Under the pieces are notes generated by a model. The model searched no databases and was not told where the DNA came from. It saw only the letters and a list, made by a program, of their open reading frames with translations. Both the position numbers and the translations under genes were made by a program. Of a DNA stretch of 64,000 bases, positions 18,445-41,648 are shown in pieces; within the stretch, counting starts at the first letter, position 1, and each line of letters opens with the position of its first letter. The stretch lies in the NCBI GenBank assembly GCA_964387865.1, contig CAYLXC010000002.1, forward strand, positions 18,676 to 82,675, given 5' to 3'. The DNA comes from an uncultured Gammaproteobacteria bacterium (GTDB lineage Bacteria; Patescibacteriota; Microgenomatia; Daviesbacterales; UBA10151).

Positions 18445-18451
18445 AAATTAA

Positions 18452-19207: not shown

Positions 19208-19232
19208 TACTGTTACAATCTTCTTTGAGAAT

Positions 19233-20411: not shown

Positions 20412-20417
20412 ATTAAT

Positions 20418-21344
20418 ATGTCTGCCAAAAACATTCACACACTTCTGATTACCGGTTCAACTGGTTTGGTTGGATCAAGATTTGTTGAACTTTTTAAAAA
20501 CAATTTTTCAATCGTTACTATCGGAAGAAGTAATGTAGATAATCAGATAGATTTAACTTCCAAAGAAGAAGTATTCAGAACTATTCAATCATCTGATGCT
20601 GATGCTGTAATCAATTTTGCAGCTTACACTAATGTAGATGAAGCGGAAAAAGAAAAAGGAGATACAAAAGGAGAGGTATACACCATAAATACACTACTGC
20701 CATTTTGGCTTGCAAAAAGTTGCCAAACTTCCGGAAAGAAACTTTATCATATCTCGACCGATTATGTTTTTGATGGAAAACAAACGAATAGGTCCTACAC
20801 AGAAGAAGATATTCCTAAACCGGTTGACTGTTGGTATTCAATAACAAAATATGAAGGAGAAATTGGCGTTGCTAACGGTTTTAAAAAACAGGAAAATTTT
20901 TCAATTATTCGGATATCCTATCCATACAGCGGTGTTTATAAGAGAAAATTAGATGTTGCCAGAGCTATTATAGAAAGGTTGGTTAGGAAAGAGTCCTATT
21001 TTGGTATAACAGATCAGAAAGTAAAACCAACTAGTGTGGATGATATTGCAAATGCTTTAAATCTGCTGCTAAAAAAGAGGGTCTATGGTATATTTCATAT
21101 TGCAGGTAATTTTTCTCCAAATGAATACATTACTCCTTATGACTTTGCACTCAAAATTGCTGAAACTTTCGAATTGGATTCTTCGTTAATTAAGCCTATA
21201 ACCTTTTTAGAATTTTCAAAAGAAAGGATTACACCAAGGCCTCAACATACATGGCTTGATACTACAAAAATAGAATCGCTTGGTTTTAGTATTACTAATA
21301 CTAATCAAGCTCTAAATAGATTAAGACAACAATTTAACCACTAG
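20418..21344 (+). CDS. RmlD-like NAD(P)-dependent reductase/epimerase (dTDP-4-dehydrorhamnose reductase family SDR)
   Basis: 'LLITGSTGLVGSRFVEL' and 'YSITKYEGE' (YxxxK). About 300 aa. Paralog of 35274..36167. Confidence 0.6.
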   Translation: MSAKNIHTLLITGSTGLVGSRFVELFKNNFSIVTIGRSNVDNQIDLTSKEEVFRTIQSSDADAVINFAAYTNVDEAEKEKGDTKGEVYTINTLLPFWLAKSCQTSGKKLYHISTDYVFDGKQTNRSYTEEDIPKPVDCWYSITKYEGEIGVANGFKKQENFSIIRISYPYSGVYKRKLDVARAIIERLVRKESYFGITDQKVKPTSVDDIANALNLLLKKRVYGIFHIAGNFSPNEYITPYDFALKIAETFELDSSLIKPITFLEFSKERITPRPQHTWLDTTKIESLGFSITNTNQALNRLRQQFNH

Positions 21345-22077
21345 TAATTAAAAAATTTGCCTTTCTGATATTTAGGCGATGAAAGATATACTCTATGAGT
21401 AACCTTATATTTTCAATCCCATGTTTTATGGAACCAATAAGGTTAGGTGAGATAGCTTCTTTAGAGTACCTTTTTGTAACAGGTACCTCGGCAATTTTAA
21501 ATCCAAAGTAAACAGTTTGAATTATCAGCTGAGGATCAAAAAGATAACCATTACCATTTTTCATAAAAGGAATCGTTTTGAGTAGTTTCTTTGTATATCC
21601 TCTATATCCTGAATTAACTTCTATTAAATTTGTACCCAATACAAGATTAAAAAGTAGCGCAATTATCCTAAGTGATAATGATTTATAAACTGGTGTCTGA
21701 TTAATCCCGGTTGTTAAAAAACGCGATCCTAAGATTAGGTCCCCTTTGCCTTGCTTAAGTGCCCTTATAAACTTAGGTATTTCTCCACCATCATATTGTC
21801 CATCCGGATGCAACATTATGATATAATCCGCTTCCCTTTTTAAGCTTTCTGTATAGAGAGTTTTTTGATTGGCTCCATATCCTAAATTTCTTTTGTGAAC
21901 AATAGGTTTTATATCTAGACTTTTTATCACTTCAACAGTTCTATCTTTCGATCCATCATCAACTATAATGATCTCATCGACAAAAGACTTTGGAATTTTT
22001 ATATAAACATCCTTTAATGTCCTTTCCGAATTATAAGCAGGAATTACTACCAAAACTTTACCATCTCCGTCTTTCAT
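21334..22077 (-). CDS. GT2 polyprenyl-phosphate glycosyltransferase (DPM1/GtrB-like)
   Basis: 'VLVVIPAYNSERTL', 'EIIIVDDGSKDRT'. About 247 aa. Confidence 0.7.
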   Translation of the reverse strand: MKDGDGKVLVVIPAYNSERTLKDVYIKIPKSFVDEIIIVDDGSKDRTVEVIKSLDIKPIVHKRNLGYGANQKTLYTESLKREADYIIMLHPDGQYDGGEIPKFIRALKQGKGDLILGSRFLTTGINQTPVYKSLSLRIIALLFNLVLGTNLIEVNSGYRGYTKKLLKTIPFMKNGNGYLFDPQLIIQTVYFGFKIAEVPVTKRYSKEAISPNLIGSIKHGIENIRLLIEYIFHRLNIRKANFLITSG

Positions 22078-22130: not shown

Positions 22131-24002
22131 ATGAAGATAATTGCAGGTAGTTTCTTGATTGTTAAAATCTTTATTGTGATTTTGCTAGTATGGGCCATAC
22201 AAACCCTTTTTCTTCATGAGCTAGTTAATAACGGTATATCTGGAGACGACCTGGAATGGCTTTTCTATTTTCATGCATATAGAGGCGATCTTATTAGCCA
22301 GTTCCCTTTTATTTGGAATGATAGGACCATTTACATTGTACAAGAAATATATTATATGGGAATGCTGGAGGGTATTTTTGGCTTTTTAAATCTACCCGCT
22401 TTTCAACTGACCCATCTGTTATTTAAATCTCTGGCTACTTTATCATTATATTTCTTAATCTTCAGCTTGCTTAAAAACAGGCTTTTTGCTTTTTTAGCAG
22501 CATTCTTCTTTATTATTTCTTCCTCAACAACCGGGGTATTTGAACTAGTAGTGTATGGTACATGTTTCTTATCTATAAGCTTTATTTGTTTTTTCATTCT
22601 TTTTTATATCCAGTCTTTAAAAGATAGTAAAAAGATTTTACTAGCCTCACTATTTCTCTTTCTGGCACTTGTTCTATGTCCACCGAGAACTTTTCCTATC
22701 ATAGTAGTTCCTTTTGTTGTGGAATTAATTCGTTTGATTAGGAAATTTAGACCCTTTGTTTTTTTACGAAGACTATTAATTTTTTACTTTCTGCCATTTA
22801 CATTATTCGGGGGGGATGCAAGACATGTTACAGGGGGGTCATGGGTTGTTCATCTTTATGATTTTACAGCGGGCAATTATTATTCGATCACATACCCTCT
22901 TCAAGTACTCAGCTCTCTTTTTATTGATAAAAGCTTCCTGGAATATATTTTCGGCCAATGGAAGAATGTAAATTTAAATGTAGTTTTAGCATTACAGCTA
23001 CTCTTGCTTCCTTTCTCGATATTTCTGGGCTTAATCATAAAAACGAAGAAGCTCGGTATTTTCCTTGTTAAGATAACATTGTTAACTTTTCTCCTGCAAG
23101 CTATTCTGTATGTGCTTGGTTCCCTAAGCCATGATTTACCACCAGGGTTTGCTATTATACAAAAAGTAAATTTTAACACCATATCATTTTTACAAGCATC
23201 CCTGGGAGGATACCTCTTAATCTTTGGATTATTCTTAGGGTTTGAGTGCTGGCAGAATCAAAGGAATAATCATCTGATGAGGGTTTTAGTGGCAGCTTGG
23301 CTTTGGACAGTAATATCTTTAATTTTAATATGGTTTAGTGCTGGGGGAGTGCAGATAGCAGATCAAGTTGATCGAAGATATGTATTACTTACATCTTTAG
23401 GAGCTGTTGTTTTCACTGCTGGAATATTTACCTTAGCTATTGAAAGTTTACTGAAAATAAGAAATCGAGCTGCTAAAATATCATCACTTTTTCTAATATG
23501 TGTTGCCCTACTAACAATTACTTTTGGCAATTACAGATTTTTGGATCAATATTTTTATAAGAGAAATCAGGAGTTGGGTTTTGATTCTTCCTGGCAAAAA
23601 CTTATGTATCAACGGTTTCTAAACAAATTCGGAAAAGCTAACTTACATAAAGACGCCTTTATATACATAGATTTTAGTGGGAGTGAGGAGAAAGATAGAA
23701 TATTCTACACAAATTCAGTTGGAATTATTTATAAACTGATATATTATGAAGATGGTCACCTAATAAGGGATAACTGTAAGGCGGTAGTTCATGACCCCAG
23801 AGTTTTAAAGAAGTCTTATACTGTTGTCAATGGGGAAAAAGGTTTTATCTTTGATACCATCTGTGTCAATCCTGTTATAGGACAAGATGGTAAACCTCAT
23901 TACTATTCTTTGGATAATTTTTATGCTTATTCACTGCAAAATAGGGAATTTGTAGACATTAAGGAAAAAACTATAGCCGAGCTTGATCAAGCTGTACCTT
24001 AG
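22131..24002 (+). CDS. Family-B polytopic membrane protein (623 aa), GT-C-type glycosyltransferase candidate
   Basis: About 12-13 TM helices. First loop 'NGISGDDLEW' (acidic GT-C-like motif). C-terminal soluble region ends 'NFYAYSLQNREFVDIKEKTIAEL'. Confidence 0.5.
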   Translation: MKIIAGSFLIVKIFIVILLVWAIQTLFLHELVNNGISGDDLEWLFYFHAYRGDLISQFPFIWNDRTIYIVQEIYYMGMLEGIFGFLNLPAFQLTHLLFKSLATLSLYFLIFSLLKNRLFAFLAAFFFIISSSTTGVFELVVYGTCFLSISFICFFILFYIQSLKDSKKILLASLFLFLALVLCPPRTFPIIVVPFVVELIRLIRKFRPFVFLRRLLIFYFLPFTLFGGDARHVTGGSWVVHLYDFTAGNYYSITYPLQVLSSLFIDKSFLEYIFGQWKNVNLNVVLALQLLLLPFSIFLGLIIKTKKLGIFLVKITLLTFLLQAILYVLGSLSHDLPPGFAIIQKVNFNTISFLQASLGGYLLIFGLFLGFECWQNQRNNHLMRVLVAAWLWTVISLILIWFSAGGVQIADQVDRRYVLLTSLGAVVFTAGIFTLAIESLLKIRNRAAKISSLFLICVALLTITFGNYRFLDQYFYKRNQELGFDSSWQKLMYQRFLNKFGKANLHKDAFIYIDFSGSEEKDRIFYTNSVGIIYKLIYYEDGHLIRDNCKAVVHDPRVLKKSYTVVNGEKGFIFDTICVNPVIGQDGKPHYYSLDNFYAYSLQNREFVDIKEKTIAELDQAVP

Positions 24003-24026
24003 GCTAATTTGTTATTATAAAAGAAA

Positions 24027-25892
24027 ATGGGAAAAAATTTAGTCTTAATTGTGATCCTGATAATAATAGTTTTTGCTTCACAATTTATATTAGCTCGAAA
24101 ACAGCTTGATTATGGATTCTACAATGATGATTGGTATGTTCTAGGGTGGTATAAACAAGTTGTTGGAAATCCTATTTTGGATATGCCGAAAGCCTTCAAG
24201 GAGATTGGTCCTCACAACTTTGTTCATGCTTATTATATGGGGGTAATGTTTGATTTTTTTAAACTGAACTATCCTTACTACCATGTTATAAATACATTAC
24301 TTAAAGCTTTAGCTGTTTTAAGCTTTTTTCCTGTAGTTTATCTTCTGTTTAAGAGTAAATTCTTAGCCTTTTTAGCCACTTTTATTTTTGCAGTCCACTT
24401 CTCTCCATATGGAGTGATATACCATGTGATAGGAGGAGAAGGTTCTCTAGTTGTTATTTTTATGAATTTGTTTTTGGCAGTCTATATTTATTCTTCCCAA
24501 AAACATTTGCTTAACAATGTAAAAATTTTATTTCTACTACTTGCACTTCTTTTAACAACAGCTTCCTTTGAGATTACCAGGGCTTATCCGGTTTTATTAT
24601 TCTTGCCCTTTTTAGAATTTATAAATTTTTTTGTTAACAGAGCATCAACCAATGTTAAAGCAATACTCTTAAGACTTCTATTTCTCTATTCTCCATTCAT
24701 TTTCCTACTGGCTTACCATCCTTCAGCTCTAAACGAAATAAATTTTAACAAATTTATACGTATTATAGATTGGGGTAACTATCAACTAATCCTTACTATT
24801 TTTAGTTCATTTGGAAGTACTTTTGTTCCGGAAGGTCTGATAGATCAGTTAAATTTGTTTGCAAGAATAGGAGAGGGTGTTCTTTACAGGGATTTGGAAA
24901 CCTTTCTTACCTTCCTGATTTTTAGATTTTTGATAATCTCTATTCCGTTACTTATAGTCATAAGCTCATTGGTTGGTCTGAAGCCTAAATGGATTTTGAG
25001 AAGTTTATTTTTAATCATTAGTTTTTCGATCCTAGCCTTTTGGCTTGCTAATCATTGGTTGTATCTTGACCCTAAGCTTCGTGCCCCGGTTGATCCTTCA
25101 ACATATTTCATTCCAGCCTTAATTGGTTTGTTTGTATTTTCTTGCGCAATTTCATTTTTGATTGAGTGGTTTTATAATAGGGGAAATAATCTTCTTTTTT
25201 CGCTTGCCTTAGCCCCCATTTTTTCTCTTCTTTATACTTTTTTAACCTGGATTTTGGTTGATGATAATGCTATTTTTATGGGAGTTCATGCTTACTTGAA
25301 TATTCCTGCCATAGGATCCAGTTTATTTCTTGCGATACTGCTCTATTTGACCTTTCAAAAACTTTTATCTAATCAATCTAAAATAATTGGCAAATTTGTT
25401 GCCTCCTTCACTATCATTTATTTTTTATTTTTCATAACTTTCAGTGCACACCAGATTGATAAATTCTTCTCCTATTGGCTAAAAACTGGTTTTGCCGCTT
25501 CAGAACAGGAGCGTATGCATAATAGTTTTTGGAAGGAAGTTGGACTAGGTAAATCTGAAACTCAAGATCCAGTTCTGATTTACCACGATGGTTCACAAGA
25601 TAACGAAAATGGATACTTTTATGCTAATTCTTTTGTCTGGTCTATTCCAGCAATGTTGACTGTAGAAAAGGGTTTACCTTTTGATCCCGGCGGATATTGC
25701 AAAGCAGCGATGTCTTATAAAGATTTTGAAAACTTAAGAATTGAGGAAGTTAATGGTAAAAAAATGGTTGTTCAAAGTGGTTGTGGTAATGATCTTTATT
25801 ATTCCTTGGAAAACTTTTTTGCTTTTAAGATGATTAATCGGGATCTTGTTCCAATCAGATTGGAGGTTCTCAAACTGTTAGGAATTGAGTAA
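24027..25892 (+). CDS. Family-B polytopic membrane protein (621 aa), GT-C-type glycosyltransferase candidate
   Basis: 'YGFYNDDWYVLGW' first-loop motif, 'AYLNIPAIGSSLF' and C-terminal 'NFFAFKMINRDLVPIRLEVL'. Confidence 0.5.
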   Translation: MGKNLVLIVILIIIVFASQFILARKQLDYGFYNDDWYVLGWYKQVVGNPILDMPKAFKEIGPHNFVHAYYMGVMFDFFKLNYPYYHVINTLLKALAVLSFFPVVYLLFKSKFLAFLATFIFAVHFSPYGVIYHVIGGEGSLVVIFMNLFLAVYIYSSQKHLLNNVKILFLLLALLLTTASFEITRAYPVLLFLPFLEFINFFVNRASTNVKAILLRLLFLYSPFIFLLAYHPSALNEINFNKFIRIIDWGNYQLILTIFSSFGSTFVPEGLIDQLNLFARIGEGVLYRDLETFLTFLIFRFLIISIPLLIVISSLVGLKPKWILRSLFLIISFSILAFWLANHWLYLDPKLRAPVDPSTYFIPALIGLFVFSCAISFLIEWFYNRGNNLLFSLALAPIFSLLYTFLTWILVDDNAIFMGVHAYLNIPAIGSSLFLAILLYLTFQKLLSNQSKIIGKFVASFTIIYFLFFITFSAHQIDKFFSYWLKTGFAASEQERMHNSFWKEVGLGKSETQDPVLIYHDGSQDNENGYFYANSFVWSIPAMLTVEKGLPFDPGGYCKAAMSYKDFENLRIEEVNGKKMVVQSGCGNDLYYSLENFFAFKMINRDLVPIRLEVLKLLGIE

Positions 25893-25896
25893 CCAT

Positions 25897-27744
25897 TTAA
25901 AGTTGGGGTCTAATTTTTTCCATTATTTCTGACTTTATATTAATAATATCCTTATTTTGTAATTTGAATGCATAAAAATCTTTTAGAGGGAAAAACTTAT
26001 CTGCCCCACCAAAATCCTTATAGAAAAAGCCTTCTGTATTATTTGATAAACCATAGCTTGATATAAGTTTTTCTTCATCGTTAACCAAAAGAGCAACTGG
26101 GCAAGGTAATTTAGAATGGAATGGTCCATAAAGGTTGTACCACCTGTCAAATCTGTCAACCATAATAACGTTATGGGAGTATTCATTTTGCTGATCACCT
26201 TTTGTATATAAATAAAAAAATTTATTACAAGACTGCGGTTCTTCAATAAGTTTCCAAAATTGGTTTTTCATGCTGACTTGATCTGAGGCTCTCATCCCGC
26301 CGCTATCAAGAAACCTTTTTAGATATAATTGCATTTGGTCATTACTAAGGAAGAAATATGGTATTAATATTAAAAAAATAGCAGGAGCGAAATTTTTAAG
26401 AATTTTGTTGTTTTTGAATTTTGTATAAACATAAGTCAAAATAGAGGCAATCGCTGCCGAGATACCCATGCTGGGGAGGGTTGAATAACCATTTATTCCG
26501 AGCGGTATATAAACATGATCTTGTAGAATCCAGGTAAACAATATAGAAGTTAGCGCAAAAGACATTCCTAGAAGGTATAGTTTAAGGTATATATTCTGTT
26601 TATCATTTTGCCACTGTTTAAATATAAAGATTGTTAAAACAGTAATATAGATTCCAAATAGAGCAGCAGGAGTATAGGTTGTAGGGTCGTAATACTTTTT
26701 TATATCTGGGGGTAAATTTAAGGCATGGTCAATTATTAAAAAAACAATTAACTGCAGAATAAAATTTATAATGAAAACTAGAAAAAAAAATTTAAGCGGT
26801 TTTTTTGATAGAACTTTTGATAAAAAAAGCGTGAGAGATCCAAGAATTACCAAAGGACCACCAATAAAAAAGGGTATAAAACTTTCTAAATTCCAGGATG
26901 CGGAACTAAGAAACTTCAGCCCATCACCTACTAAGAAAAGACCACCTATTGTTGTAAAAGGAGTAAGGAATACTTGTAAATTTCCTAAGTATGCATTGCG
27001 TATATTTGCTACAAAGTTTCCATAGGGAGTTCCCTGGTTTCCCATGACAATAAGAAAGACAACGAAGGGTAAAAGAAATATTATGAGGGTTTTTGAGATC
27101 CATAAAAGATTAGAAAGCGATTTGTCTTTTAAATATATTATAGCCCCAAGAAAGATAATAAACATTAGGATTGGATACGCCCTTATCGGATTAATAAAAA
27201 AAGAAAAGAATAAGAATACAGAAGTTAGTATGGTCCATAAAATATTTTTGGGTCTTTTTTTATAAAGCAAGTAAAAGAAGATGAAAAAAATGTTCATTGC
27301 AGGCATTAATAAATAATCTTGCGTTCTGGATACCATTTCAAATGATCCAATAGAACCATAATGTATAGAAAATATAAGTGCGGAGATAAAAGCTAGTAAA
27401 CGAGTGTTAAATACAACTTGAATTAAGATATAGAAACTTATAATAGATAAAATTTTAAAAATTAAGCTGGTTATCTGATATGCTTCGTAATTAAAGCCAA
27501 ATAAGCTGAAAAGAATACCACTATAATAAATATGAGGGGCATGATAGGGTCCTGCATCCTGCCATACCTGATTAAATTTTAAAAAGGGGTTTGATCCAAG
27601 ACTCGAAAAATCAGAGAAGAACCAAACATCATCTGGAGAAAAACCAAATTCCAAATGGGGTTTTAGGATTAAGCTTTGGGAAAAACTTATAAGCAGAATA
27701 AATATTAATAAAAAAAGCCATTCCTTCTTAAAATAAGATATCAT
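25897..27744 (-). CDS. Family-B polytopic membrane protein (615 aa), GT-C-type glycosyltransferase candidate (inverted copy)
   Basis: 'FGFSPDDVWFFSDF', C-terminal 'DFYAFKLQNKDIINIKSEIMEK'. Confidence 0.5.
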   Translation of the reverse strand: MISYFKKEWLFLLIFILLISFSQSLILKPHLEFGFSPDDVWFFSDFSSLGSNPFLKFNQVWQDAGPYHAPHIYYSGILFSLFGFNYEAYQITSLIFKILSIISFYILIQVVFNTRLLAFISALIFSIHYGSIGSFEMVSRTQDYLLMPAMNIFFIFFYLLYKKRPKNILWTILTSVFLFFSFFINPIRAYPILMFIIFLGAIIYLKDKSLSNLLWISKTLIIFLLPFVVFLIVMGNQGTPYGNFVANIRNAYLGNLQVFLTPFTTIGGLFLVGDGLKFLSSASWNLESFIPFFIGGPLVILGSLTLFLSKVLSKKPLKFFFLVFIINFILQLIVFLIIDHALNLPPDIKKYYDPTTYTPAALFGIYITVLTIFIFKQWQNDKQNIYLKLYLLGMSFALTSILFTWILQDHVYIPLGINGYSTLPSMGISAAIASILTYVYTKFKNNKILKNFAPAIFLILIPYFFLSNDQMQLYLKRFLDSGGMRASDQVSMKNQFWKLIEEPQSCNKFFYLYTKGDQQNEYSHNVIMVDRFDRWYNLYGPFHSKLPCPVALLVNDEEKLISSYGLSNNTEGFFYKDFGGADKFFPLKDFYAFKLQNKDIINIKSEIMEKIRPQL

Positions 27745-27777: not shown

Positions 27778-29709
27778 GTGAGAGGTTTACTACTAGATAA
27801 AAAAAATTTACTTACACTTCTTTTTTTACTAATCCTCACGGTTACTTTGAATAGTCTAATTTTTTCAAACCAGTTAAATTATGGATTTAGAGATGTAGAT
27901 TGGCAAGTGCTTTATTATTTTAAGCTTTTCGGTAATTTATCTTTAGATCATTTGCTAGAAAATATTAAAGTTTTGGGGGTTTATATTTCTGAATCATACT
28001 ATGTTGGATTACTTGAGAAACTCTTTGGATTAAACTTTATAAAGCTTCATCAGGTCAGCCATTTTTTCAAAGTCGCTGCCGCAATAAGTGTTTATATACT
28101 TATATTAATAGTTTTCAAAAAGAGGCTACTGGCATTTATTACAAGTTTAATATACACAATTTCTTATACTCATGCAGGAGTTCTTTTTCAATTAGCATCC
28201 GGGGTAATTTTTTTAACCACAATACTCATGAATTCATTTTTAATTACATATTATTACAGTTTATTAGGAAAAGACATTATAAAACACTCTATCATTGCTG
28301 GTGTTTTGTTAATTTCTGCACTAATCTTAAAGCCTGAAAGGATGTATCCGTTGATAGCTTTAATCCTACTTGTAGAAATTTTTTTAGTTGTGCGAGGCAA
28401 TTTTTTAAAAAGTTTACAAATTTCATGTTTAAAGCGAACCGTTACCATTTTTTTGCCGCTTATTTTTCTTGTTGTTTTCTATATATTCCTACTTAAAGAT
28501 ATTGCCCCTTCAGGGTTTACTCCCAATCAATTTTTTGAAAGTACAAGTATAAGGATTGATAGTGTTACCGGTGGGAATTGGCAGCTTTTAATATATCCTT
28601 TTGCATCATTTGGAAGTATATTTTTATATGAGGATTACTGGAAGCTTCTGGGCATGTTAAATTTTCAAAATTTCACAGCATATCTTTCTTCCTTAATTTT
28701 TGGTCCAGTTTTTCGGTTGGGAGTAGTCGCATTTATTCTCATTTCAGTAATTTTTAGAAAATCTTTCAAATTAACATTAATTACCATGGTTTCGGTTTTT
28801 ATTTTCGGGCTAATAATCTTTTGGTTAAACACTAATTGGCAGCATATAAATATGTCGGTACGTATCCACTTTGATCCAAATTTAATGGCTCAACCTGCCA
28901 TATTTGGTTTCTATATTTTTATACTGAACCTTATATTTTTTATTAAGTGGATCAGAAGTAATGATCCGATGCTCCTTCCCCTTATTGTTGGTTTTTCCTT
29001 TGCGATTTTATTTACCCTGCTTAGCTGGATTCCCTCTGACATACAGCTAATATTTATGGGGCCTCAAAGATATTTAAGCATACCCTCAATCGGCACAAGT
29101 CTTTTTATCTCTGGACTGCTGGTGATAGTTTTCAATAGATTACAAGAAGTAAAATTTACTAAACAGTTTGCCTGGATAATTTTTTTAATTTTAGCCCCTT
29201 TAATTTTTGTAAATTTCCAGGTTGCCAATAAATTTTTTGATTACGAACTGACGTTTGCCGGATTGATAGGAAGCGATCAAATAAGAATGAAAAACAAGTT
29301 TCGTTATCTTGCAAAAGATCTTAGCCAGGAAGACAAATCACTATTTTATTTTGATGAAACTGCGGATAAAGATAATGGATACTTTGACGAAGGTACCACA
29401 ATGGCAGGATTTGAATTTTGGACTAGGATCAACAGTGACGGCACTTTAAACACTTTTCCGGAGCCAGGAATGTTGAGGACCAATGTTCAATGTATTGAAC
29501 ATACTCATCAAAGTTGTTTAAAAATGTTGCATAAAGGATTAGCAGAAGAAAATGGCGAGAAAGGAATTTGGTATAAAGATGTAATTAGAGCTAAACAAGG
29601 ACTACGTTTTTATAAACTTACTAATTTTTACGCATTTAGATTTATCAATAAAGATATAGTGGATATTAGGAAAGAAGTTTTAGAAGAGCTAACTGCTACA
29701 AATCACTAA
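27778..29709 (+). CDS. Family-B polytopic membrane protein (643 aa), GT-C-type glycosyltransferase candidate
   Basis: GTG start. 'YGFRDVDWQVLYYF', 'RYLSIPSIGTSLF', C-terminal 'NFYAFRFINKDIVDIRKEVLEEL'. Confidence 0.5.
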   Translation: MRGLLLDKKNLLTLLFLLILTVTLNSLIFSNQLNYGFRDVDWQVLYYFKLFGNLSLDHLLENIKVLGVYISESYYVGLLEKLFGLNFIKLHQVSHFFKVAAAISVYILILIVFKKRLLAFITSLIYTISYTHAGVLFQLASGVIFLTTILMNSFLITYYYSLLGKDIIKHSIIAGVLLISALILKPERMYPLIALILLVEIFLVVRGNFLKSLQISCLKRTVTIFLPLIFLVVFYIFLLKDIAPSGFTPNQFFESTSIRIDSVTGGNWQLLIYPFASFGSIFLYEDYWKLLGMLNFQNFTAYLSSLIFGPVFRLGVVAFILISVIFRKSFKLTLITMVSVFIFGLIIFWLNTNWQHINMSVRIHFDPNLMAQPAIFGFYIFILNLIFFIKWIRSNDPMLLPLIVGFSFAILFTLLSWIPSDIQLIFMGPQRYLSIPSIGTSLFISGLLVIVFNRLQEVKFTKQFAWIIFLILAPLIFVNFQVANKFFDYELTFAGLIGSDQIRMKNKFRYLAKDLSQEDKSLFYFDETADKDNGYFDEGTTMAGFEFWTRINSDGTLNTFPEPGMLRTNVQCIEHTHQSCLKMLHKGLAEENGEKGIWYKDVIRAKQGLRFYKLTNFYAFRFINKDIVDIRKEVLEELTATNH

Positions 29710-29726: not shown

Positions 29727-31088
29727 ATGGAGTTTAAAAGAGAAATGCCAAAGAAAACTTTAAATGCTTTTTATGATTTGGTTATAGTAGGAGGCCTTGG
29801 TCATGTAGGTCTTCCATTAGGTATTGCATTTGCAGAAAAAGGACTTAAAGTTTGCCTTTATGATATTGATAAGAGTAAAGGTGAAATGGTCAAAAAAGGT
29901 AGTATACCTTTTATAGAATATGGTGCACAAGAAATTTTGGAAAAAGTATTAAAGGCAGGAACCCTTACAGTTTCCTATGATATTAAAGATATATCAAAGG
30001 CTAAATATGTAATTGTAACTATTGGTACTCCAGTGGATGAACACCTTACTCCAAAAACAAGAGCTTTTTTGGAATTTTTTGAAAATATTCGAGATTATTT
30101 AAACCCTAATCAAATAATAATTATTCGAAGTACAGTTTATCCTAATACCTGTCAACAGCTGCTAAGGATGCTAGGAAATGGTAAGCAGTGGCATATAGCA
30201 TATTGTCCAGAACGGATTACCGAGGGATATGCTATTAAAGAGTTAAAAGAACTGCCACAAATTGTAGCAGGTTTGAGTGAGCATGCAATAAATAATGCTG
30301 CAGCATTATTTAGTACAATTTCCACAAAAATTATAAAAACTGCAATGGGAGAGGCGGAATTGGTTAAATTATTTTCAAATGCTTGGAGATATATTCATTT
30401 CGCCTTGGCAAATCAATTTTATATGATCTCTTATAGATTTGGAGTTGATTATGAAAGAGTTCGTTGGGCGATGAAAGAAGGTTATGAAAGAGCAGCCACC
30501 TTGCCAGTTGCAGGTTTCGCCGCAGGACCATGCCTTTTAAAAGACACCATGCAGCTTGTGGCATTTGATAGCAATAATTTTCTTTTGGGACATGCGGCAA
30601 TGATGATTAATGAAGGCTTACCAAATTTTATTGTTGAGGATCTTCGCAAAAGATATGATTTACAGAAAACTAAAGTGGGAATTTTAGGCATGGCTTTTAA
30701 AGCGGATGTAGATGATATAAGAGACTCCTTATCATATAAGTTAGGAAAAATTCTTAGATTTCACGGTGCCCAGGTTTATTACTGTGATGAATATGTCAAA
30801 AATCCTACATTTTCATCTAAAGAAAAACTAATCAAAGAATGCGATGTGATAATTATAGGAGTTCCACACTCTGCCTATAAAAGACTTGTTATGCCAGAAA
30901 AAGTAGAAGTTGTAGATTTATGGGGTGTTACTGCTGGAGGTAGGCGTACAATCCCAAAGGGCTATATAACTTCTGAATATAGAGCTATTGATTCTTTTGG
31001 TCAAACTAGTGCTAATCAATATGCGGAAGGTTCTACTTTTCAACTCGCAGTCAGAATGAAAAGGTCAACTAAATCAACAAGTAAGTGA
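29727..31088 (+). CDS. Nucleotide-sugar dehydrogenase (UDP-glucose/GDP-mannose 6-dehydrogenase family)
   Basis: 'FYDLVIVGGLGHVGLPLGIAFAEKGLKVCLYDID' NAD-binding region and the catalytic-region 'FAAGPCLLKD' (GGSCFPKD-like). Confidence 0.75.
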   Translation: MEFKREMPKKTLNAFYDLVIVGGLGHVGLPLGIAFAEKGLKVCLYDIDKSKGEMVKKGSIPFIEYGAQEILEKVLKAGTLTVSYDIKDISKAKYVIVTIGTPVDEHLTPKTRAFLEFFENIRDYLNPNQIIIIRSTVYPNTCQQLLRMLGNGKQWHIAYCPERITEGYAIKELKELPQIVAGLSEHAINNAAALFSTISTKIIKTAMGEAELVKLFSNAWRYIHFALANQFYMISYRFGVDYERVRWAMKEGYERAATLPVAGFAAGPCLLKDTMQLVAFDSNNFLLGHAAMMINEGLPNFIVEDLRKRYDLQKTKVGILGMAFKADVDDIRDSLSYKLGKILRFHGAQVYYCDEYVKNPTFSSKEKLIKECDVIIIGVPHSAYKRLVMPEKVEVVDLWGVTAGGRRTIPKGYITSEYRAIDSFGQTSANQYAEGSTFQLAVRMKRSTKSTSK

Positions 31089-32089
31089 AAATACCTCAGG
31101 TAATGAAAAAAAGATTTCTGGTTACAGGTGGGGCGGGATTTATTGGCAGTGCCTTAGTAAGGGTTTTGGTGAATGATGGCAAAAGCGTTAGAGTATTGGA
31201 TAATGAGTTCCGTGGAGAAGTAGATAGATTGAAGGATATTAGGGATAAATTTGAAATGATAAATGGAGATATCAGAGATCCTAAATTAGTTGTGAAGGTT
31301 TGTCGAGGTATAGATAGTGTTATTCATCTTGCCTATATTAACGGTACCCAGTTTTTCTATACAAAACCTGAGTTGGTACTTGAGGTTGGAGTTAAAGGGA
31401 TAGTTAATATTTTGGACGGGTGTATAAAAAATAATGTAGGTGAGTTATTTCTAGCTTCAACTTCAGAAGTTTATCAAACCCCAAAGATTATTCCTACTCC
31501 TGAAACAGTTCCCATGGTTATTCCGGATCCACTAAATCCCAGATATTCTTATGGTGGGGGGAAAATAATTAGTGAGCTGATGGCTATAAATTATGGACGA
31601 AAATATTTTAAACGTGCTGTAATTTTTAGACCGCATAATGTTTATGGTCCTGATATGGGTTGGGAACATGTTGTACCTCAACTTATCTTAAGTATTAAAA
31701 ATTTAATAGAAAGGAATAAAAAAAGTAATACTATCCATTTACCAATTCAAGGATCAGGAGATGAGACAAGAGCCTTTATTTATATAGATGATTTTCTTGA
31801 GGGACTTAAACTTGTAATAGATAAGGGTGAACATTTGGGAATTTATCATATTGGTACCATGGATGAAGTATCAATTAAAGAACTTGCAAAACAAATAGGT
31901 TACCATTTTGGTAGAAAGATTATAGTATTGCCAGGAGAATTGACAAAAGGAAGTACCAAACGTCGTTGTCCGGATATTAGTAAACTAAAAAAGTTAGGGT
32001 TTAAACCGAAAGTTTCACTTAAAGAGGGTTTACAGGGGACAGTGAAATGGTATAATGCTTTCGCCCATTTACAACCTAAATATGAGTAA
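31085..32089 (+). CDS. NAD-dependent epimerase/dehydratase (UDP-glucuronate decarboxylase/4-epimerase-like extended SDR)
   Basis: 'FLVTGGAGFIGSALVRVL' and 'YSYGGGKIISE' (YxxxK). The GTG at 31085 overlaps the upstream stop (GTGA); an alternative ATG lies at 31103. Confidence 0.75.
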   Translation: MKIPQVMKKRFLVTGGAGFIGSALVRVLVNDGKSVRVLDNEFRGEVDRLKDIRDKFEMINGDIRDPKLVVKVCRGIDSVIHLAYINGTQFFYTKPELVLEVGVKGIVNILDGCIKNNVGELFLASTSEVYQTPKIIPTPETVPMVIPDPLNPRYSYGGGKIISELMAINYGRKYFKRAVIFRPHNVYGPDMGWEHVVPQLILSIKNLIERNKKSNTIHLPIQGSGDETRAFIYIDDFLEGLKLVIDKGEHLGIYHIGTMDEVSIKELAKQIGYHFGRKIIVLPGELTKGSTKRRCPDISKLKKLGFKPKVSLKEGLQGTVKWYNAFAHLQPKYE

Positions 32090-33356
32090 AGGTAAGAAAA
32101 AACTGGCTTTTGGAACCGGGAAAAGTATAGTGGTAGAAAATTGCCAAGTCTGTAACAACCCTAATTTAGAATCGATACTATTTTTAGGTTACTTACCTTC
32201 GGTAAATCAGATGTATCCAATAGGATCGAGACCCAAAGAGCAACCGAGTTACCCTGCCGAACTTCTTCATTGTACAAAGTGTCATTTGGTTCAACTGGGC
32301 TTAATAGTTGATCCAAAAATTATTTTTCCGAAAGAATATCCATATACCTCTGGAACAACCAAAATTCTAAGAGATAATTTTGCCGAACTTTCTTTAGAAG
32401 CTAAAAAGATTTTAGATTTAAAGTCAGATGATTTGGTGATTGATATAGGGTCAAATGACGGTACACTTTTAAATAACTTCAAAGATGATGTTAGAGTACT
32501 GGGAATAACCCCTGAAGAAATTGGTCAACTTGCCATTGAAAAGGGAATACCAACAATTTTGGACTATTTTACATCCCGTACAGTGAAGAAAGTCAAGAAG
32601 AAATATGGCAAGGCCAAGCTTGTAACAGCTGCTAATGTATTTGCTCATATAGAAGATGTAAGTGTGGTTTTGGAAAATATTTTAAATCTCCTAAAACCAG
32701 ATGGGGTGTTTATTTCGGAATCGCATTATCTTTATTCACTAATTAAATTTGTTCAATATGATACTATCTACCATGAACATTTAAGATATTACTCACTGGC
32801 TTCCCTTAAATATATTTTAAATATGCATGGACTGGAAGTTTTTCATGCAAAACAAATTCCTACTCATGGAGGATCAATCAGAGTTTATGCCGCAAGAAAG
32901 GGTCTATATCCTGTTAAGGATTCTGTAAACAAGCTACTTCAAAAAGAAAAGCCATATGTAACAAACAAAAAAAGTTTATTAAAATTTAAGGAGAATGTTG
33001 TCTTATCAAAACTTGAACTTCACTCCTTACTTTGGGATCTGAAGAGAAAGGGGAAAAAGATATATGGCATTTCTGCCCCGTCCAGAGCCAGCACTTTAAT
33101 AAATTATGTTGGGTTGGACGATGACATAATAGATTGCATTTTAGAAATTAAAGGATCATATAAAATAGGAAATTACATACCTGGAACTCTTATTCCTATT
33201 GTGGAAGAGAGCAGCTTATTTGAGCAGCAACCTGACTATGCTTTGCTTTTATCTTGGCATATTGCTAAAGAATTGATGCCAAAACTTAAACAAAAAGGAT
33301 TTAAAGGAGACTTCATAGTTCCTCTCCCCAGGCCTTTGATTATAAAAGGCTTTTGA
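32082..33356 (+). CDS. Zn-ribbon-containing SAM-dependent (C-)methyltransferase, NDP-sugar C-methyltransferase-like
   Basis: 'CQVCNNPNLESILFLGYLPSVNQ...CTKCHLVQL' N-terminal zinc-binding domain, 'VIDIGSNDGTLLNNF' motif I and a roughly 150-aa C-terminal extension. The ATG at 32082 overlaps the upstream stop (ATGAGTAA); the ORF track start is 32055. Confidence 0.55.
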   Translation: MSKGKKKLAFGTGKSIVVENCQVCNNPNLESILFLGYLPSVNQMYPIGSRPKEQPSYPAELLHCTKCHLVQLGLIVDPKIIFPKEYPYTSGTTKILRDNFAELSLEAKKILDLKSDDLVIDIGSNDGTLLNNFKDDVRVLGITPEEIGQLAIEKGIPTILDYFTSRTVKKVKKKYGKAKLVTAANVFAHIEDVSVVLENILNLLKPDGVFISESHYLYSLIKFVQYDTIYHEHLRYYSLASLKYILNMHGLEVFHAKQIPTHGGSIRVYAARKGLYPVKDSVNKLLQKEKPYVTNKKSLLKFKENVVLSKLELHSLLWDLKRKGKKIYGISAPSRASTLINYVGLDDDIIDCILEIKGSYKIGNYIPGTLIPIVEESSLFEQQPDYALLLSWHIAKELMPKLKQKGFKGDFIVPLPRPLIIKGF

Positions 33357-37849: not shown

Positions 37850-40800
37850 ATGAGCTTAAGGATAAATATAACATTGCTGATACTCCTGCTCATTCCCACC
37901 TTGCTAGTCTTAATTTGGTTTAGACATGGTAATATTATGGCTACGGGGGAATCAGGAATTCCCTTCTATGATTTTAATATACAATTAAAAATTAACAAGG
38001 ATGCTTGGGCAGATTATACTCTAGGACATCCTACTAATATTGGTGTTGCTGCCACTCCTACGTACTGGTTCTTTGCAAGTTTGCAAAGCTTTGGAATTCC
38101 AGACTTCTTACTTCAAGCTTTTTTCTTTTGGTTGGTTTTAGTAATTTCCGGTATCAGTATTTTTTTATTATCCAAAGAACTTTTTAATAAATTAGATAGT
38201 AAATTTTTAATACTTGCTGTATTTTTTTATTGGTTTAACCCATTTGCCTTAGTTAACATTTGGAATAGATTTTTAAATAATTATTTTGTTTTTTATGCAT
38301 TTGTACCACTTGCGCTGCTTCTTTTCATAAAAGGGATCAGATTGCAAAGATATATTTATTCTATCTTGATAGGTCTTTTGTCTGCAATATTCTCTTATTC
38401 TCAAACATCTATGGCATTAAATGTAATATTTTGGTTAGTCCTATTTTATACCGCTATATTTTATATATTTGTAGAAAACAGCTGGATAAATAGATTCTTT
38501 ATAATTAAGTTTTTTATATTGACATTTATTTTTTGGTTTGTAGTTAATAGTTGGTGGATTAATCAAGTTTTTAATTATATATCATCAGGCAGTTTTGATG
38601 CTGTTTCTACAGGTTCCTTCACAGCAATTGGAAATTATCAAACATTCGCTAACTTAAGCGCAATACTTGGAAATATATCAGACCTAATTAGATTACGTCA
38701 TGACTATTTTTTTAACAATCCAGATATATCTTGGATAAAAATTTATAATTCCCCAATATTTACTTTATTTAATTTTTTTATGGCTATGCTAATTTCTATT
38801 CCCATCATTTTTATAAAAAATCGAGCAGTACTTTTTACTGGAGGATTATTTTTAATAGGTATTTTTTTAACTAAAGGTAATAATCCTCCTTTTGGTGAGA
38901 TCAATGACAGTGTGTTTTTGTTCTCCCCATTAATGCAGCTATTCAGAAATCCATTCGAGAAGTTTGGATTTATACTTGCTTTATCATCAACGCTTTTATT
39001 TATACAAGGCTCAAAATCTATATGCGATTTATTAAAAAATAAAGCCAGGGAACTATTTTATTTCTCTGTCGTTATAATAATTACTTTAGTTTGGGGAATA
39101 TCTTTTTGGACAGGTTCTGTATTCATAGGCGCAGAAAGACCAATCAATGATTCTAAGATAGGTTATCAGGTTAAGGTACCAGAGCATTACAAACAAGCAT
39201 CTGAATGGTTGAGATCCCAAAATGATGACTTTAGATTAATCGTTTTGCCAATAGGGGGGGAAGGGATAACTTATAAATGGGAAAAAGGTTATTCTGGGGT
39301 TGAATTAACTAATCAGTTGTTACCTAAAACTGCCATATCTTTTAGTACTAATATTCCGTTTTATGATGATGTTTCAAAAAATATTGAGAGATTATTTCTT
39401 ACAACAAACTTATTGCCATCCCTATCCAATGCACTAAACACAAAATATATATTATATAGACCAGATATAGACTGGGAGGTAAGGAAAATGAGAGATCCCA
39501 AAGTAGTACTCTCTAAATTGGAGGAAAAACAACAAAAAGGGGAATTAACAAAAGTTGCTCAATTTGGTGATTTGATTTTCTTTCAGATTACATCCAAGGA
39601 CAAAGAGGAGATTTATACAGCTAACACTACATTCTTAAGTTATTCAAAACCGAATATTTCTGATTTAGAATTCTCTCAAAGTAATTTGGTAATTAGTACG
39701 GGGAATAAAATAGATAAGATACCGAAAAATAAAATCGAGGGGGAAGTTATACACCCTAAGGCGCAATTTTTTTTAGATTATAAAAAAGAGCCTGTTTTTG
39801 AGATTAGACAAGATATTTTTCCGCATGTGGCAATTTTACCGAAACAAATAAGTTATCCTTTTGTTGTAATTAAAGATAGACTTAAGGAGGAAACCATTAA
39901 AGACAGAGAAGAATTATTGGAATATAGACTTGTTATTTTAGGAAAGAGATTGGTTGAGGCTAAGTTTTCAGCGGATTTAAATGATGAAGGCGGGATACGT
40001 ATAGCAATAGTTCATTACCATACACTTTTGGATAGGACAATTAGATTGCTTGAACAGCTTTATATGATTGATCAGGGAAATAAACAAGCTTCACTCCAAG
40101 GTAAGCTATACTTAATATTTTCAAGGCATGTTAAAGTTTTAGAAGATTTGCAAAATAGGTTTGGGCAAACTAGCAAAACAGGAGTAGAGGTAGAAAGTAC
40201 TTTAAAATTGCTAAAGACAAGTCTGATCCGAGCCCATATTTATCCCGCTTACGGTTTTTTGGAAGATTTAGAATTCCCGCTAAAAAGGAGAATGATATAT
40301 CATTTTGAAGTTAAAAAGAGCGGGGAATATGAGTTACTTTGGGATGAGAAGATATTGAATGGCTATTACAAAATATCTTCAGGCGATCAAATAGTGCTAC
40401 AAGTTGACGATGAACTTTCTAAAATGAATTTAAAAACTGATGGTAAAGGTCATGTCAGCTTAGGTAAAGTTTATTTTGAAGAAGGTAGTCACGAAATTGG
40501 ATTAAACTTGCCAGAGGAAATAAATCTTATAGAGGTTCCTTTAAGCATGAATTTTAAGGTTGATCATGGAAGTAAAGTTGATTACTTTCCGATCAAAAAT
40601 TACGATTCTTATTCAAGCTACAACATTAATTTTGATTATTGGATAAAAAAAGGCAATGGTGTTCAAATTTTAGTATACGATAAAAAGCCTGAAGATATAA
40701 TATCTACAACGAAGCCTCGTAAGGAGTCCGTAGTAGGACCGGATTTATATGATTATACACCTAAAAATTATTTTGGGTTGTTTAAACTATCTGAAGGTGC

Positions 40801-41338
40801 TGAAGAGGCAACTATTGCATTAGAAGTAATTCCTTGGAATGACTGCGAAACAATATTCTACTCTAACAGAAGGGAACGGTGCAAAACTGAGGATTTTAGG
40901 AGACCATACGATAAGACCACAGATGTTGATATCAGTAAACTGAGTGTAACGCGTAGCTTTTCTGATTTGCCAGTTTTAGTAAAAAAAGATCTAGTTGATA
41001 AATCTTTATCTCCCCAACACAAATTTAAGAAATTAGATACAACAACTTATCAGATAGAAATAAAGGAGGTCAAAAAACCCTTCTTTCTTGTTTTTTCCGA
41101 ATTGTTTGATCCGGGTTGGAGATTGATGGATACTGATGGAAAGATTTTAAATTATCAACACTTCTTGGCAAATGGTTATGCCAATGGTTGGTATATTGAT
41201 AGGATGGGTAATTTTCAAATAATCCTAAAATTTACTCCTCAAGATTTATTAAAATTGGGTGAAAAAATATCTTTCGTAGGAGTTTCTTTTGGATTAATAT
41301 TTGTAGCCTATGAAATTTGGTGGAGAAAAAATGCTTAA
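37850..41338 (+). CDS. Family-A large polytopic membrane protein (1162 aa), YfhO/AftD-like GT-C glycosyltransferase candidate with an expanded extracytoplasmic domain
   Basis: N-terminal 'IWFRHGNIMATGESG' (compare 4013 'IWFRDGNIMGTAEDS'). Motifs 'TKGNNPPFGE', 'FRNPFEKFGF', 'KWEKGYSGVEL' and C-terminal 'FSELFDPGWRL...LANGYANGWYIDRMGNFQIILKFTPQ' followed by a terminal TM. The roughly 430-aa excess over 4013 lies in the soluble region. Confidence 0.6.
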   Translation: MSLRINITLLILLLIPTLLVLIWFRHGNIMATGESGIPFYDFNIQLKINKDAWADYTLGHPTNIGVAATPTYWFFASLQSFGIPDFLLQAFFFWLVLVISGISIFLLSKELFNKLDSKFLILAVFFYWFNPFALVNIWNRFLNNYFVFYAFVPLALLLFIKGIRLQRYIYSILIGLLSAIFSYSQTSMALNVIFWLVLFYTAIFYIFVENSWINRFFIIKFFILTFIFWFVVNSWWINQVFNYISSGSFDAVSTGSFTAIGNYQTFANLSAILGNISDLIRLRHDYFFNNPDISWIKIYNSPIFTLFNFFMAMLISIPIIFIKNRAVLFTGGLFLIGIFLTKGNNPPFGEINDSVFLFSPLMQLFRNPFEKFGFILALSSTLLFIQGSKSICDLLKNKARELFYFSVVIIITLVWGISFWTGSVFIGAERPINDSKIGYQVKVPEHYKQASEWLRSQNDDFRLIVLPIGGEGITYKWEKGYSGVELTNQLLPKTAISFSTNIPFYDDVSKNIERLFLTTNLLPSLSNALNTKYILYRPDIDWEVRKMRDPKVVLSKLEEKQQKGELTKVAQFGDLIFFQITSKDKEEIYTANTTFLSYSKPNISDLEFSQSNLVISTGNKIDKIPKNKIEGEVIHPKAQFFLDYKKEPVFEIRQDIFPHVAILPKQISYPFVVIKDRLKEETIKDREELLEYRLVILGKRLVEAKFSADLNDEGGIRIAIVHYHTLLDRTIRLLEQLYMIDQGNKQASLQGKLYLIFSRHVKVLEDLQNRFGQTSKTGVEVESTLKLLKTSLIRAHIYPAYGFLEDLEFPLKRRMIYHFEVKKSGEYELLWDEKILNGYYKISSGDQIVLQVDDELSKMNLKTDGKGHVSLGKVYFEEGSHEIGLNLPEEINLIEVPLSMNFKVDHGSKVDYFPIKNYDSYSSYNINFDYWIKKGNGVQILVYDKKPEDIISTTKPRKESVVGPDLYDYTPKNYFGLFKLSEGAEEATIALEVIPWNDCETIFYSNRRERCKTEDFRRPYDKTTDVDISKLSVTRSFSDLPVLVKKDLVDKSLSPQHKFKKLDTTTYQIEIKEVKKPFFLVFSELFDPGWRLMDTDGKILNYQHFLANGYANGWYIDRMGNFQIILKFTPQDLLKLGEKISFVGVSFGLIFVAYEIWWRKNA

Positions 41339-41648
41339 GATAATTAAAATTAGTTTACCTTTGATTTGGTTTTCAGGGATTGTTTATCTTCTTATTAGCT
41401 CTTTAATTGAGAATCGTTTCCTTGAGGAATATATTTATTGGTTAGTTTTGATAGGCTTAATTTTTTTTATATGGTTATGGAAGAGAAACAGCAAATTTTC
41501 ATTGTATTCTTCTTTTACTCTATTTTTAATTTCTGCACTAATTGTGACCTTTGGTTTTAAAGATATCGGGGAATTTATAATGAGGTTAAGTTTTATTTTT
41601 TTGTTGGTAGGTTACATTCAATCATTGGTAGAGTATAAAAGGGAGTAG
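41331..41648 (+). CDS. Small 4-TM membrane protein (105 aa); partner of the family-A gene
   Basis: ATG overlaps the stop of 37850..41338 (ATGCTTAA). Four predicted TM helices. 'FKDIGEFIMRLSFIFLLVGY' is conserved with the ORF at 6202. Confidence 0.4.
   Translation: MLKIIKISLPLIWFSGIVYLLISSLIENRFLEEYIYWLVLIGLIFFIWLWKRNSKFSLYSSFTLFLISALIVTFGFKDIGEFIMRLSFIFLLVGYIQSLVEYKRE

Follow-up and report, generated by a model that had tools for sequence, protein, structure and literature searches.

C-methyl-branched pentoses of the type considered here are otherwise known mainly from antibiotic biosynthesis. The subject of this work is a three-gene operon at positions 29727-33356 of a 64,000-nucleotide stretch of contig CAYLXC010000002.1 (assembly GCA_964387865.1; this whole stretch is called the window below), whose predicted products are a nucleotide-sugar 6-dehydrogenase (DH), an extended short-chain dehydrogenase/reductase (SDR) and a sugar C-methyltransferase (MT). 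The window belongs to a 163-kb metagenome contig (ENA ERZ27284378); its GC content is about 32%, and its closest named relatives are Microgenomates and Daviesbacteria of the Candidate Phyla Radiation (CPR, Patescibacteria). We think it probable that this trio forms the core of a pathway making a C-methyl-branched pentose on a nucleotide carrier. A methyl-branched or methylated pentose or uronate precursor had been suggested in an earlier note on this DNA, and the suggestion now finds support in domain content, catalytic residues, gene linkage and the precedent of the maduropeptin route (PMC10951976).

The nearest described precedent is the MdpA1-A6 route to the maduropeptin aminosugar in Actinomadura madurae, which was proposed from the gene cluster and is set out in a review of Actinomadura metabolites (PMC10951976). 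In it, the TDP-glucose dehydrogenase MdpA2, the decarboxylase MdpA3, the C-methyltransferase MdpA4 and the aminotransferase MdpA5 act in turn; MdpA3 yields a nucleoside diphosphate (NDP)-threo-pentapyranosyl-4-ulose and the route ends at TDP-4-amino-4-deoxy-3-methyl-ribose (PMC10951976). The chemistry that we propose thus has a precedent, because the maduropeptin route follows the same enzyme logic. Compared at the level of the pathway description, both systems encode a dehydrogenase, a (here predicted) decarboxylase and a C-methyltransferase together and then process the C4 keto group, and one third of the loci related to the window operon also use a 4-aminotransferase. The Mdp sugar, however, is TDP-linked and has its own thymidylyltransferase, whereas no nucleotidyltransferase adjoins the window operon; it serves a secondary metabolite and is handled by a soluble glycosyltransferase acting on the enediyne, whereas the window sugar appears bound for a polyprenyl-phosphate carrier and membrane glycosyltransferases of the GT-C fold. 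The window operon has no adjacent C4 aminotransferase and is linked to an RmlD-like reductase instead, and modules of the window type are spread over many bacterial and archaeal phyla.

The Arn pathway (Ugd, ArnA, ArnB, ArnC and ArnT), which modifies lipid A with L-Ara4N, offers the second comparison. It shares with the proposed route the passage from a uronate to a 4-keto-pentose, a family 2 glycosyltransferase (GT2) that loads undecaprenyl phosphate and a transfer by a GT-C enzyme; the GT2 of the window has some resemblance to ArnC, and the structural model of a window membrane protein matches ArnT, among other GT-C enzymes, at the level of the fold. Unlike Arn, the window operon includes a C-methyltransferase, its SDR stands alone and is not specifically related to the C-terminal domain of ArnA, no equivalents of ArnB, the formyltransferase or ArnD lie beside it, and its CPR host presumably has no lipid A. 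The proposed route would work as Arn does, with C-methylation added. We do not count the operon as a member of the Arn group, since it lacks ArnB and the formyltransferase and the scores of its SDR show no particular kinship with ArnA.

The individual enzymes have described relatives as well. With TylC3, TcaB9, KijD1 and MtmC the MT shares a three-domain architecture, the zinc site, the S-adenosylmethionine (SAM) motif and the catalytic Tyr, His, Glu and His. Its identity to the nearest solved member is about 35-40% (read off the alignment), as against 56-100% among its own orthologs across bacteria and archaea, and its predicted substrate is a 4-keto-pentose with a 3-OH rather than a TDP-2,6-dideoxy or 3-amino hexose. 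The SDR shares with UDP-xylose synthase (UXS), RsU4kpxs and the CalS8-CalS9 pair the T/S-S-E and Y-x3-K motifs, the arginine of an R-x-P motif and the pairing with an enzyme of the UDPG_MGDP_dh family. UXS reduces its product to xylose, whereas the product of the window SDR would have to stay a ketone for the MT, and the window SDR family forms a separate clade that does not reach the cut-off set for the 4-keto-pentose/UDP-xylose synthase model. The literature that could be searched held no study of this gene set other than in one antibiotic pathway, and nothing in it placed such a module among cell-envelope glycan genes, tied it to polyprenyl-phosphate GT2 and GT-C enzymes or noted how widely it occurs.

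The three enzymes of the operon

The earlier note had described the MT as a methyltransferase with a Cys4 zinc ribbon and the C-terminal extension of TylC3-like C-methyltransferases, and both parts of that description are borne out. Matches to PF08421 (49.5 bits, cut-off 31.3), PF13489 (54.8 bits) and PF08484 (140.1 bits) all lie above their cut-offs; the last spans the full 160-position profile, and the C-methyltransferase C-terminal domain is thus present. The zinc-ribbon cysteines C21, C24, C64 and C67 are in place and conserved in orthologs. The protein aligns end to end with solved sugar 3-C-methyltransferases, its best relatives in the PDB being the D-mycarose 3-C-methyltransferase 4RV9 (E = 6.6e-67, 229 bits), TcaB9 (6e-56) and 5T64. 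Residues Y86, H189, Y230, E232 and H233 align with Tyr76, His181, Tyr222, Glu224 and His225 of TcaB9, which we take to be active-site residues of that enzyme. In an alignment of 84 orthologs, the zinc cysteines, Y86, H189 and the Y230-H-E-H233 stretch are among the 124 of 424 positions that are at least 95% conserved. By these features the MT is predicted to be a sugar C-methyltransferase of the TylC3/TcaB9/MtmC type. No NCBIfam model covers it, and public records call the family just "class I SAM-dependent methyltransferase"; its homologs number at least in the thousands, the best 120 all being at least 68% identical.

A second zinc-ribbon methyltransferase of the same build, which had been placed at 3057-3920, turned out to be something else. 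The gene lies on the minus strand, and its product has an N-terminal CxxC...CxxC, a generic PF13489 core and a hydrophobic C-terminal tail, with no match to PF08421 or PF08484 and no significant similarity to the operon MT (pairwise E = 0.02). It adjoins two other methyltransferase genes (1564-3048).

The SDR matches PF01370 at 145 bits and carries the active-site string S125-T126-S127-E128 together with Y156 and K160. Across 50 orthologs, S125, S127, E128, Y156, K160, R294 and P296 are invariant. These motif residues align with T118/S119/E120, Y147, K151 and R277 of human UXS (hUXS1) and correspond to STSE, YxxxK and HRKPS of ArnA, with R294 (in R-R-C-P-D) aligned to K-R277-K-P-D of hUXS1 and H-R-K-P-S of ArnA. 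We take R277 of hUXS1, and R619 of ArnA, to be the C-terminal arginine needed for decarboxylation. In a motif table whose references were ArnA, RfbB, RffG, GalE, Gmd and Fcl of E. coli plus human and PDB sequences, the combination of S-[ST]-S-E, R-x-x-Y-x3-K and R-x-P was confined to the window SDR family, ArnA, hUXS1 and PDB entry 8VR2; the first motif is replaced by T-D-E (STDE) in RmlB, by S-A-T (SSAT) in GalE and by S-S-T (SSST) in the GDP-sugar 4-epimerase 8RDG. The second-best structural relative of the SDR, 8VR2, is a solved "NAD-dependent epimerase/dehydratase" that has the STSE, R-W-T-Y...K, FRPFNVYGP and R-I-P motifs of the family, and for which we found no functional description. 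The earlier assignment to the extended SDRs of UXS type thus stands as regards the motif set of UXS and ArnA, and fails as regards placement in the UXS clade by overall similarity. The SDR is a predicted NDP-hexuronate C4-oxidase/decarboxylase that would release a 4-keto-pentose, and this is the least certain of the three assignments.

The same similarities allow another view, in which the SDR acts as a 4-epimerase or, like Gmd, as a 4,6-dehydratase. The DH would then serve a uronic-acid branch of its own, and the substrate of the MT would be a 4-keto-6-deoxyhexose, as in classical deoxysugar pathways. In overall PDB score the SDR is indeed nearest to the 4-epimerase 8RDG (PMC12171764); among NCBIfam models it scores best, though far under the cut-offs, with the dehydratases LegB and RmlB; and Gmd too has S-T-S-E. 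Yet the invariant Glu128 is absent from the 4-epimerases that were compared, and the conserved S-x-S-E, Y-x3-K and R-x-P motifs, with no SSAT, distinguish the protein from a GalE-type enzyme. The family also has Ser in place of the RmlB Asp, and its R-x-P arginine is without counterpart in Gmd, GalE or 8RDG. Moreover, the recurrent presence of the DH beside the other two genes (see below) would go unexplained, because a 6-deoxy sugar is not oxidizable at C6. We consider this alternative very unlikely, and continue with the decarboxylase assignment.

For the DH, the UDP-glucose/GDP-mannose dehydrogenase family named in the earlier note is certain on the strength of its domains: PF03721, PF00984 and PF03720 are all matched above cut-off, as is TIGR03026 (281.7 bits, cut-off 189.8). 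Among 38 aligned orthologs the GPCLLKDT motif is invariant, and so are K214, N218, C269 and D273, presumably the catalytic Lys, Asn, Cys nucleophile and Asp of the UDP-glucose dehydrogenase (UGDH) family. The window protein has a C-terminal extension of about 50 residues (30940-31088), its 453 residues comparing with about 395-410 in most orthologs and 438 in the Daviesbacteria ortholog.

The substrate of the DH is harder to specify, as its scores are far below the cut-offs of all substrate-specific equivalog models in NCBIfam. With the DH-family profile, the best PDB matches are the UDP-N-acetylmannosamine (UDP-ManNAc) dehydrogenase 4R16 (230 bits) and Cap5O (214 bits), followed by the archaeal UGDH 3VTF (167 bits) and the TDP-glucose dehydrogenase CalS8 (158 bits). 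This ranking, a CPER-type motif of the UDP-ManNAc dehydrogenase group, and the fact that the DH forms a dedicated ortholog group tied to the SDR-MT pair and is not a housekeeping Ugd, would all suit a route that starts with oxidation of UDP-N-acetylglucosamine (UDP-GlcNAc) or UDP-ManNAc by the DH, continues with decarboxylation of UDP-GlcNAcA by the SDR and leads to a C-methylated 2-acetamido-pentose. However, the UDP- and TDP-glucose dehydrogenases score nearly as high, as do the TuaD and AglM models; UDP-glucose, oxidized by Ugd, is the starting point of the Arn pathway, which some related loci resemble; and the maduropeptin precedent has TDP-glucose in this place (PMC10951976). We regard an N-acetylhexosamine start as rather unlikely, and keep UDP-glucose as the simplest candidate substrate.

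A second gene of the UDPG_MGDP_dh family lies elsewhere in the window (11682-12968, minus strand). It has Thr at the catalytic Cys position (GFAGGTLGRD versus GFAAGPCLLKD), and the enzyme may therefore not perform the usual two-step oxidation. It stands in a minus-strand row with 10708-11685, 9759-10715 and 12952-13821, which encode a GFO_IDH_MocA oxidoreductase, an extended SDR (STSSVYG) and a classical SDR.

Recurrence of the module in other genomes

A survey based on the MT, with one genome per species, ORFs called and searched with the window proteins, gave 80 loci at 56-71% identity. Their sources include Planctomycetes, Verrucomicrobia, Acidobacteria, Chloroflexi, Alpha- and Gammaproteobacteria (with Pelagibacter), Melainabacteria, Omnitrophota, CPR phyla, DPANN archaea and Methanoperedens/Methanosarcinales. 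In 69 of these 80 loci, which have enough flank for the count, the gene immediately before the MT on the same strand codes for an SDR ortholog, and more than 15 phyla, archaea included, are represented; in the other 11 loci the SDR is mostly nearby or split. An independent search that started from the SDR found the MT directly downstream in 64 of 68 metagenome contigs, and just two of these SDR loci (L138 and L144) have no MT in the visible flank. Given adjacency at this frequency from two independent starting points, the SDR and the MT are near-obligate partners.

The wider gene set was counted wherever 6 kb or more of sequence precedes the MT, which holds for 63 loci. An orthologous DH, 41-77% identical to that of the window, lies beside the SDR-MT pair in 52 of them, and a related GT2 is found within 10 kb in 49. 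An enzyme that could finish a keto sugar is present in 59 loci, and in 58 of these it belongs to a single class: a GFO_IDH_MocA oxidoreductase in 27, a DegT 4-aminotransferase in 18, a short RmlD-like protein in 8 and a full RmlD-like protein in 5, with one locus combining an aminotransferase and a GFO_IDH_MocA protein. One finisher per locus is the pattern expected if the MT product is a keto sugar in need of reduction or transamination. In a locus from Omnitrophota (L001), a PMT-family GT-C protein, the DH, an ArnA-type formyltransferase, a 4-aminotransferase, the GT2, the SDR and the MT stand in one row, which by its gene content is an Arn-like set plus a predicted C-methylation step; L001 shares the aminotransferase and the formyltransferase with other related loci, L013 and L016 for example. 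Taken as gene-content evidence, these comparisons lend strong independent support to a predicted route from dehydrogenase through decarboxylase to C-methylation.

Two further arrangements were seen among the loci. A genome that has a module ortholog carries a second set on the minus strand (L004, 12856-17263) made up of an NTP_transferase, a 366-residue epimerase/dehydratase, a 450-residue DH, a paralogous C-methyltransferase and a GFO_IDH_MocA protein; the pairing of DH and C-methyltransferase thus recurs with a different nucleotide-activation step. In loci of Planctomycetia (L006, 3120-6232), the GT2 is separated from the SDR-MT pair by genes for a DUF362 protein, a further GT2 and a radical SAM protein.

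Proposed pathway

The sequences show directly which genes are there, what domains and conserved catalytic residues their products have and how the genes are linked; from this we infer the substrates of the following route, the succession of its reactions, the carbon that is methylated, the nucleotide, the product and the acceptor. The DH would oxidize C6 of an NDP-hexose to the uronic acid, UDP-glucose being the simplest substrate and a UDP-N-acetylhexosamine a possible one. The SDR would then oxidize C4, upon which the resulting beta-keto acid would lose CO2 and the NDP-4-keto-pentose would be released unreduced, as in ArnA. By deprotonating the carbon beside the ketone, with His233 and Glu232 as the likely base, the MT would form an enolate and add to it a methyl group from SAM; by homology the methylated carbon is most likely C3. 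A nearby RmlD-like enzyme may reduce C4 of the methylated 4-keto-pentose, a GT2 of the dolichol-phosphate-mannose synthase (DPMS)/ArnC type may transfer the sugar to polyprenyl phosphate, and membrane paralogs of the GT-C fold may pass it to envelope acceptors outside the membrane.

We favor C3 because all solved relatives of the MT are 3-C-methyltransferases and because the maduropeptin precedent points the same way. The same route might nevertheless place the methyl group on C5, as in NovU, in which case the product would be a 6-deoxyhexose or a 4-amino-4,6-dideoxyhexose instead of a branched pentose. C5 of a 4-keto-pentose is an unhindered CH2 beside the ketone, and the MT family also includes C5-methylating members. 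On the other side, the solved relatives share their conserved active-site residues with the MT, the only pathway of the same enzyme logic is reported to yield a 3-methyl pentose (PMC10951976), and a 4,6-dehydratase would give the C5-methylated product in a single step, so that a detour through three enzymes would make little sense. Methylation at C5 therefore seems quite unlikely to us, and a pentose branched at C3 remains our preferred product.

Several observations weigh against the proposal of a branched pentose. By overall score the SDR family is no nearer to UXS and ArnA than to other extended SDRs: its profile gives 176 bits with 8RDG, 163 with 8VR2, 153 with hUXS1, 144 with RmlB and 96 with the ArnA-like PbgP3, and the SDR reaches 64 bits with the 4-keto-pentose/UDP-xylose synthase model PRK11908 (cut-off 294) and 55 with that of ArnA (cut-off 777). 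In a neighbor-joining tree with E. coli, human and PDB references, the SDR family is monophyletic in 100 of 100 bootstraps but no sister group gains firm support, a mixed group that includes UXS and ArnA reaching 34%. The S-T-S-E string alone is not diagnostic because Gmd also has it, though not the R-x-P arginine. The starting sugar is uncertain, since the DH is closest to UDP-ManNAc dehydrogenases, and neither the structural matches nor the conserved residues of the MT fix the position of methylation (C3 or C5). A convergent gene for a membrane protein separates the genes for the RmlD-like protein and the GT2 from the trio, and only linkage places these two in the pathway. Finally, the literature that we searched yielded no biochemical data on members of these ortholog groups.

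A tentative extension, somewhat less likely than not, is that the trio is the core of an as yet unrecognized lipid-linked pathway, widespread in prokaryotes, that puts a C-methyl-branched pentose on cell envelopes and that in about one third of its carriers makes a C-methylated analogue of 4-amino-4-deoxy-arabinose (Ara4N), sometimes with a formyltransferase. The carriers comprise CPR bacteria, DPANN and methanogen-related archaea, Planctomycetes, Verrucomicrobia, Acidobacteria, Pelagibacter and others. If this is true, the product would be a new common surface sugar and, in Gram-negative bacteria, possibly a new lipid A modification of relevance to cationic-peptide resistance; the variants with aminotransferase and formyltransferase in such bacteria predict a methylated Ara4N-like decoration of lipid A of +145 Da versus +131 Da (calculated values). 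A compact module would then explain a branched-chain surface pentose in diverse, mostly uncultured prokaryotes, and a testable function would be at hand for the MT family, for a distinct SDR clade and for unannotated GT-C-like proteins expanded in CPR. To a specialist the chemistry itself would be unsurprising; it is the breadth of the distribution, the tight pairing of SDR and MT and the Arn-like variants that we find noteworthy.

Operon layout and neighboring genes

In the ORF listing the trio appears as three consecutive long plus-strand frames at 29727-31088, 31085-32089 and 32055/32082-33356 (gene assignments in Table 1). The earlier note had all three genes coupled by overlaps, and this is clear for the second junction, ATGAGTAA, where the MT gene, from its ATG at 32082, overlaps the end of the SDR gene (TAA stop at 32087-32089); the same MT start is chosen in the public gene call. 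At the first junction the GTGA string is present (GTG at 31085-87, TGA at 31086-88), and the coupling there hinges on a doubtful GTG start. The public call begins the SDR at the ATG at 31103 and ortholog N-termini fit the resulting length, so the DH and SDR genes may be 14 nt apart rather than overlapping.

Table 1. Genes of the operon and linked genes, with positions in the window
Feature	Position	Strand	Family or basis
Nucleotide-sugar 6-dehydrogenase (DH), 453 aa	29727..31088	+	PF03721, PF00984, PF03720, TIGR03026
Extended SDR, 328 aa from ATG 31103 (334 aa from GTG 31085)	31103..32089	+	PF01370
Predicted NDP-4-keto-sugar C-methyltransferase (MT), 424 aa	32082..33356	+	PF08421, PF13489, PF08484
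Candidate membrane glycosyltransferase of GT-C fold, 643 aa	27778..29709	+	AlphaFold2 model and Foldseek
GT-C-like membrane paralog, 635 aa	33340..35247	-	Convergent with MT, overlaps MT end
RmlD-like NDP-4-keto-sugar 4-reductase, 297 aa	35274..36167	+	PF04321
Putative GT2 polyprenyl-phosphate glycosyltransferase (DPMS/GtrB/ArnC type), 248 aa	36139..36885	-	PF00535
GT-C-like membrane paralog	22131-24002	+	Paralogy to 27778-29709 protein
GT-C-like membrane paralog	24027-25892	+	Paralogy to 27778-29709 protein
GT-C-like membrane paralog	25897-27744	-	Paralogy to 27778-29709 protein

Upstream, the first membrane-protein gene of Table 1 ends 17 nt before the DH gene, and the operon probably begins with it, the two genes being probably co-transcribed. 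The order membrane protein-DH-SDR-MT is also found in a Daviesbacteria locus (L002). Promoter-like sites (37, with 41 expected) and terminator-like sites (3, with 6 expected) are no commoner in the window than chance would give, so that the operon boundaries rest on gene spacing alone. The window contains no RNA family by Rfam and no tRNA by ARAGORN.

Neither this upstream membrane protein nor its four paralogs in the window has a Pfam or NCBIfam match, and a profile search of PDB sequences with the paralogs returned nothing meaningful. The five proteins are 615-643 residues long and 25-34% identical, with 31 invariant alignment columns; identity to the upstream protein is 34% for the one convergent with the MT and 25-29% for the three encoded in 22131-27744. 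An AlphaFold2 model of the upstream protein, predicted from the alignment of all five, has a pLDDT of 77.6 and a pTM of 0.80. Its top Foldseek matches in the PDB are all GT-C enzymes (AglB, PglB, STT3, ArnT, AftA, DPY19 and Pmt), with probabilities of about 1.0, E values of about 1e-3 to 2e-2 and TM scores of 0.28-0.43, modest values that speak to the fold level only. On this model the paralogs seem to represent a GT-C family that lacks annotation and has expanded in the genomes of CPR bacteria, and those of 22131-27744 are possible acceptor-specific transferases for the lipid-linked sugar. Besides the GT-C fold, the model carries a C-terminal alpha/beta domain. An ortholog of the gene convergent with the MT occupies the same position in L002 and L003.

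The RmlD-like protein matches PF04321 at 202.7 bits and TIGR01214 at 209.6 bits, just under the cut-off of 224, and its PDB matches above 60 bits are dTDP-4-dehydrorhamnose reductases only. Since the 52 window ORFs that were scanned include none of rmlA, rmlB and rmlC, we rejected a role in rhamnose synthesis: a rhamnose pathway encoded in the window does not explain this gene. Its orthologs accompany the SDR-MT pair in CPR and in some other loci, almost never together with an aminotransferase or a GFO_IDH_MocA protein. The GT2 matches PF00535 at 97.5 bits; its top NCBIfam matches are ArnC, PgfS and a dolichyl-phosphate hexose transferase, and the best-scoring PDB proteins are the dolichol-phosphate-mannose synthase 5MLZ (93 bits), GtrB and ArnC (41 bits).

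Other sugar genes in the window

Farther upstream, 17638-22077 encodes a GT2, a class I methyltransferase, an RfbH-like DegT enzyme, another RmlD-like reductase, which shares 33% identity with that at 35274, and a GT2 in convergent orientation, a set that suggests another lipid-linked sugar route in parallel. The DegT enzyme (19191-20411; 321 bits, cut-off 423) is the only one among the scanned ORFs of the window and lies 10 kb from the operon; being RfbH-like, it was rejected as the aminotransferase of the proposed pathway. Next to this set, a cluster of HAD phosphatase, NTP_transferase, SIS isomerase and GHMP kinase genes (14684-17628) resembles a nucleotide-heptose pathway and is adjoined by a transaldolase-family gene (13834-14631). 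On the other side of the operon, 37850-41648 and 44468-48221 encode very large proteins of 1162 and 1141 residues; after each comes an overlapping ORF of some 112 residues without a family match, and the protein of 37850-41648 shows a weak GT-C match of the AftD type.

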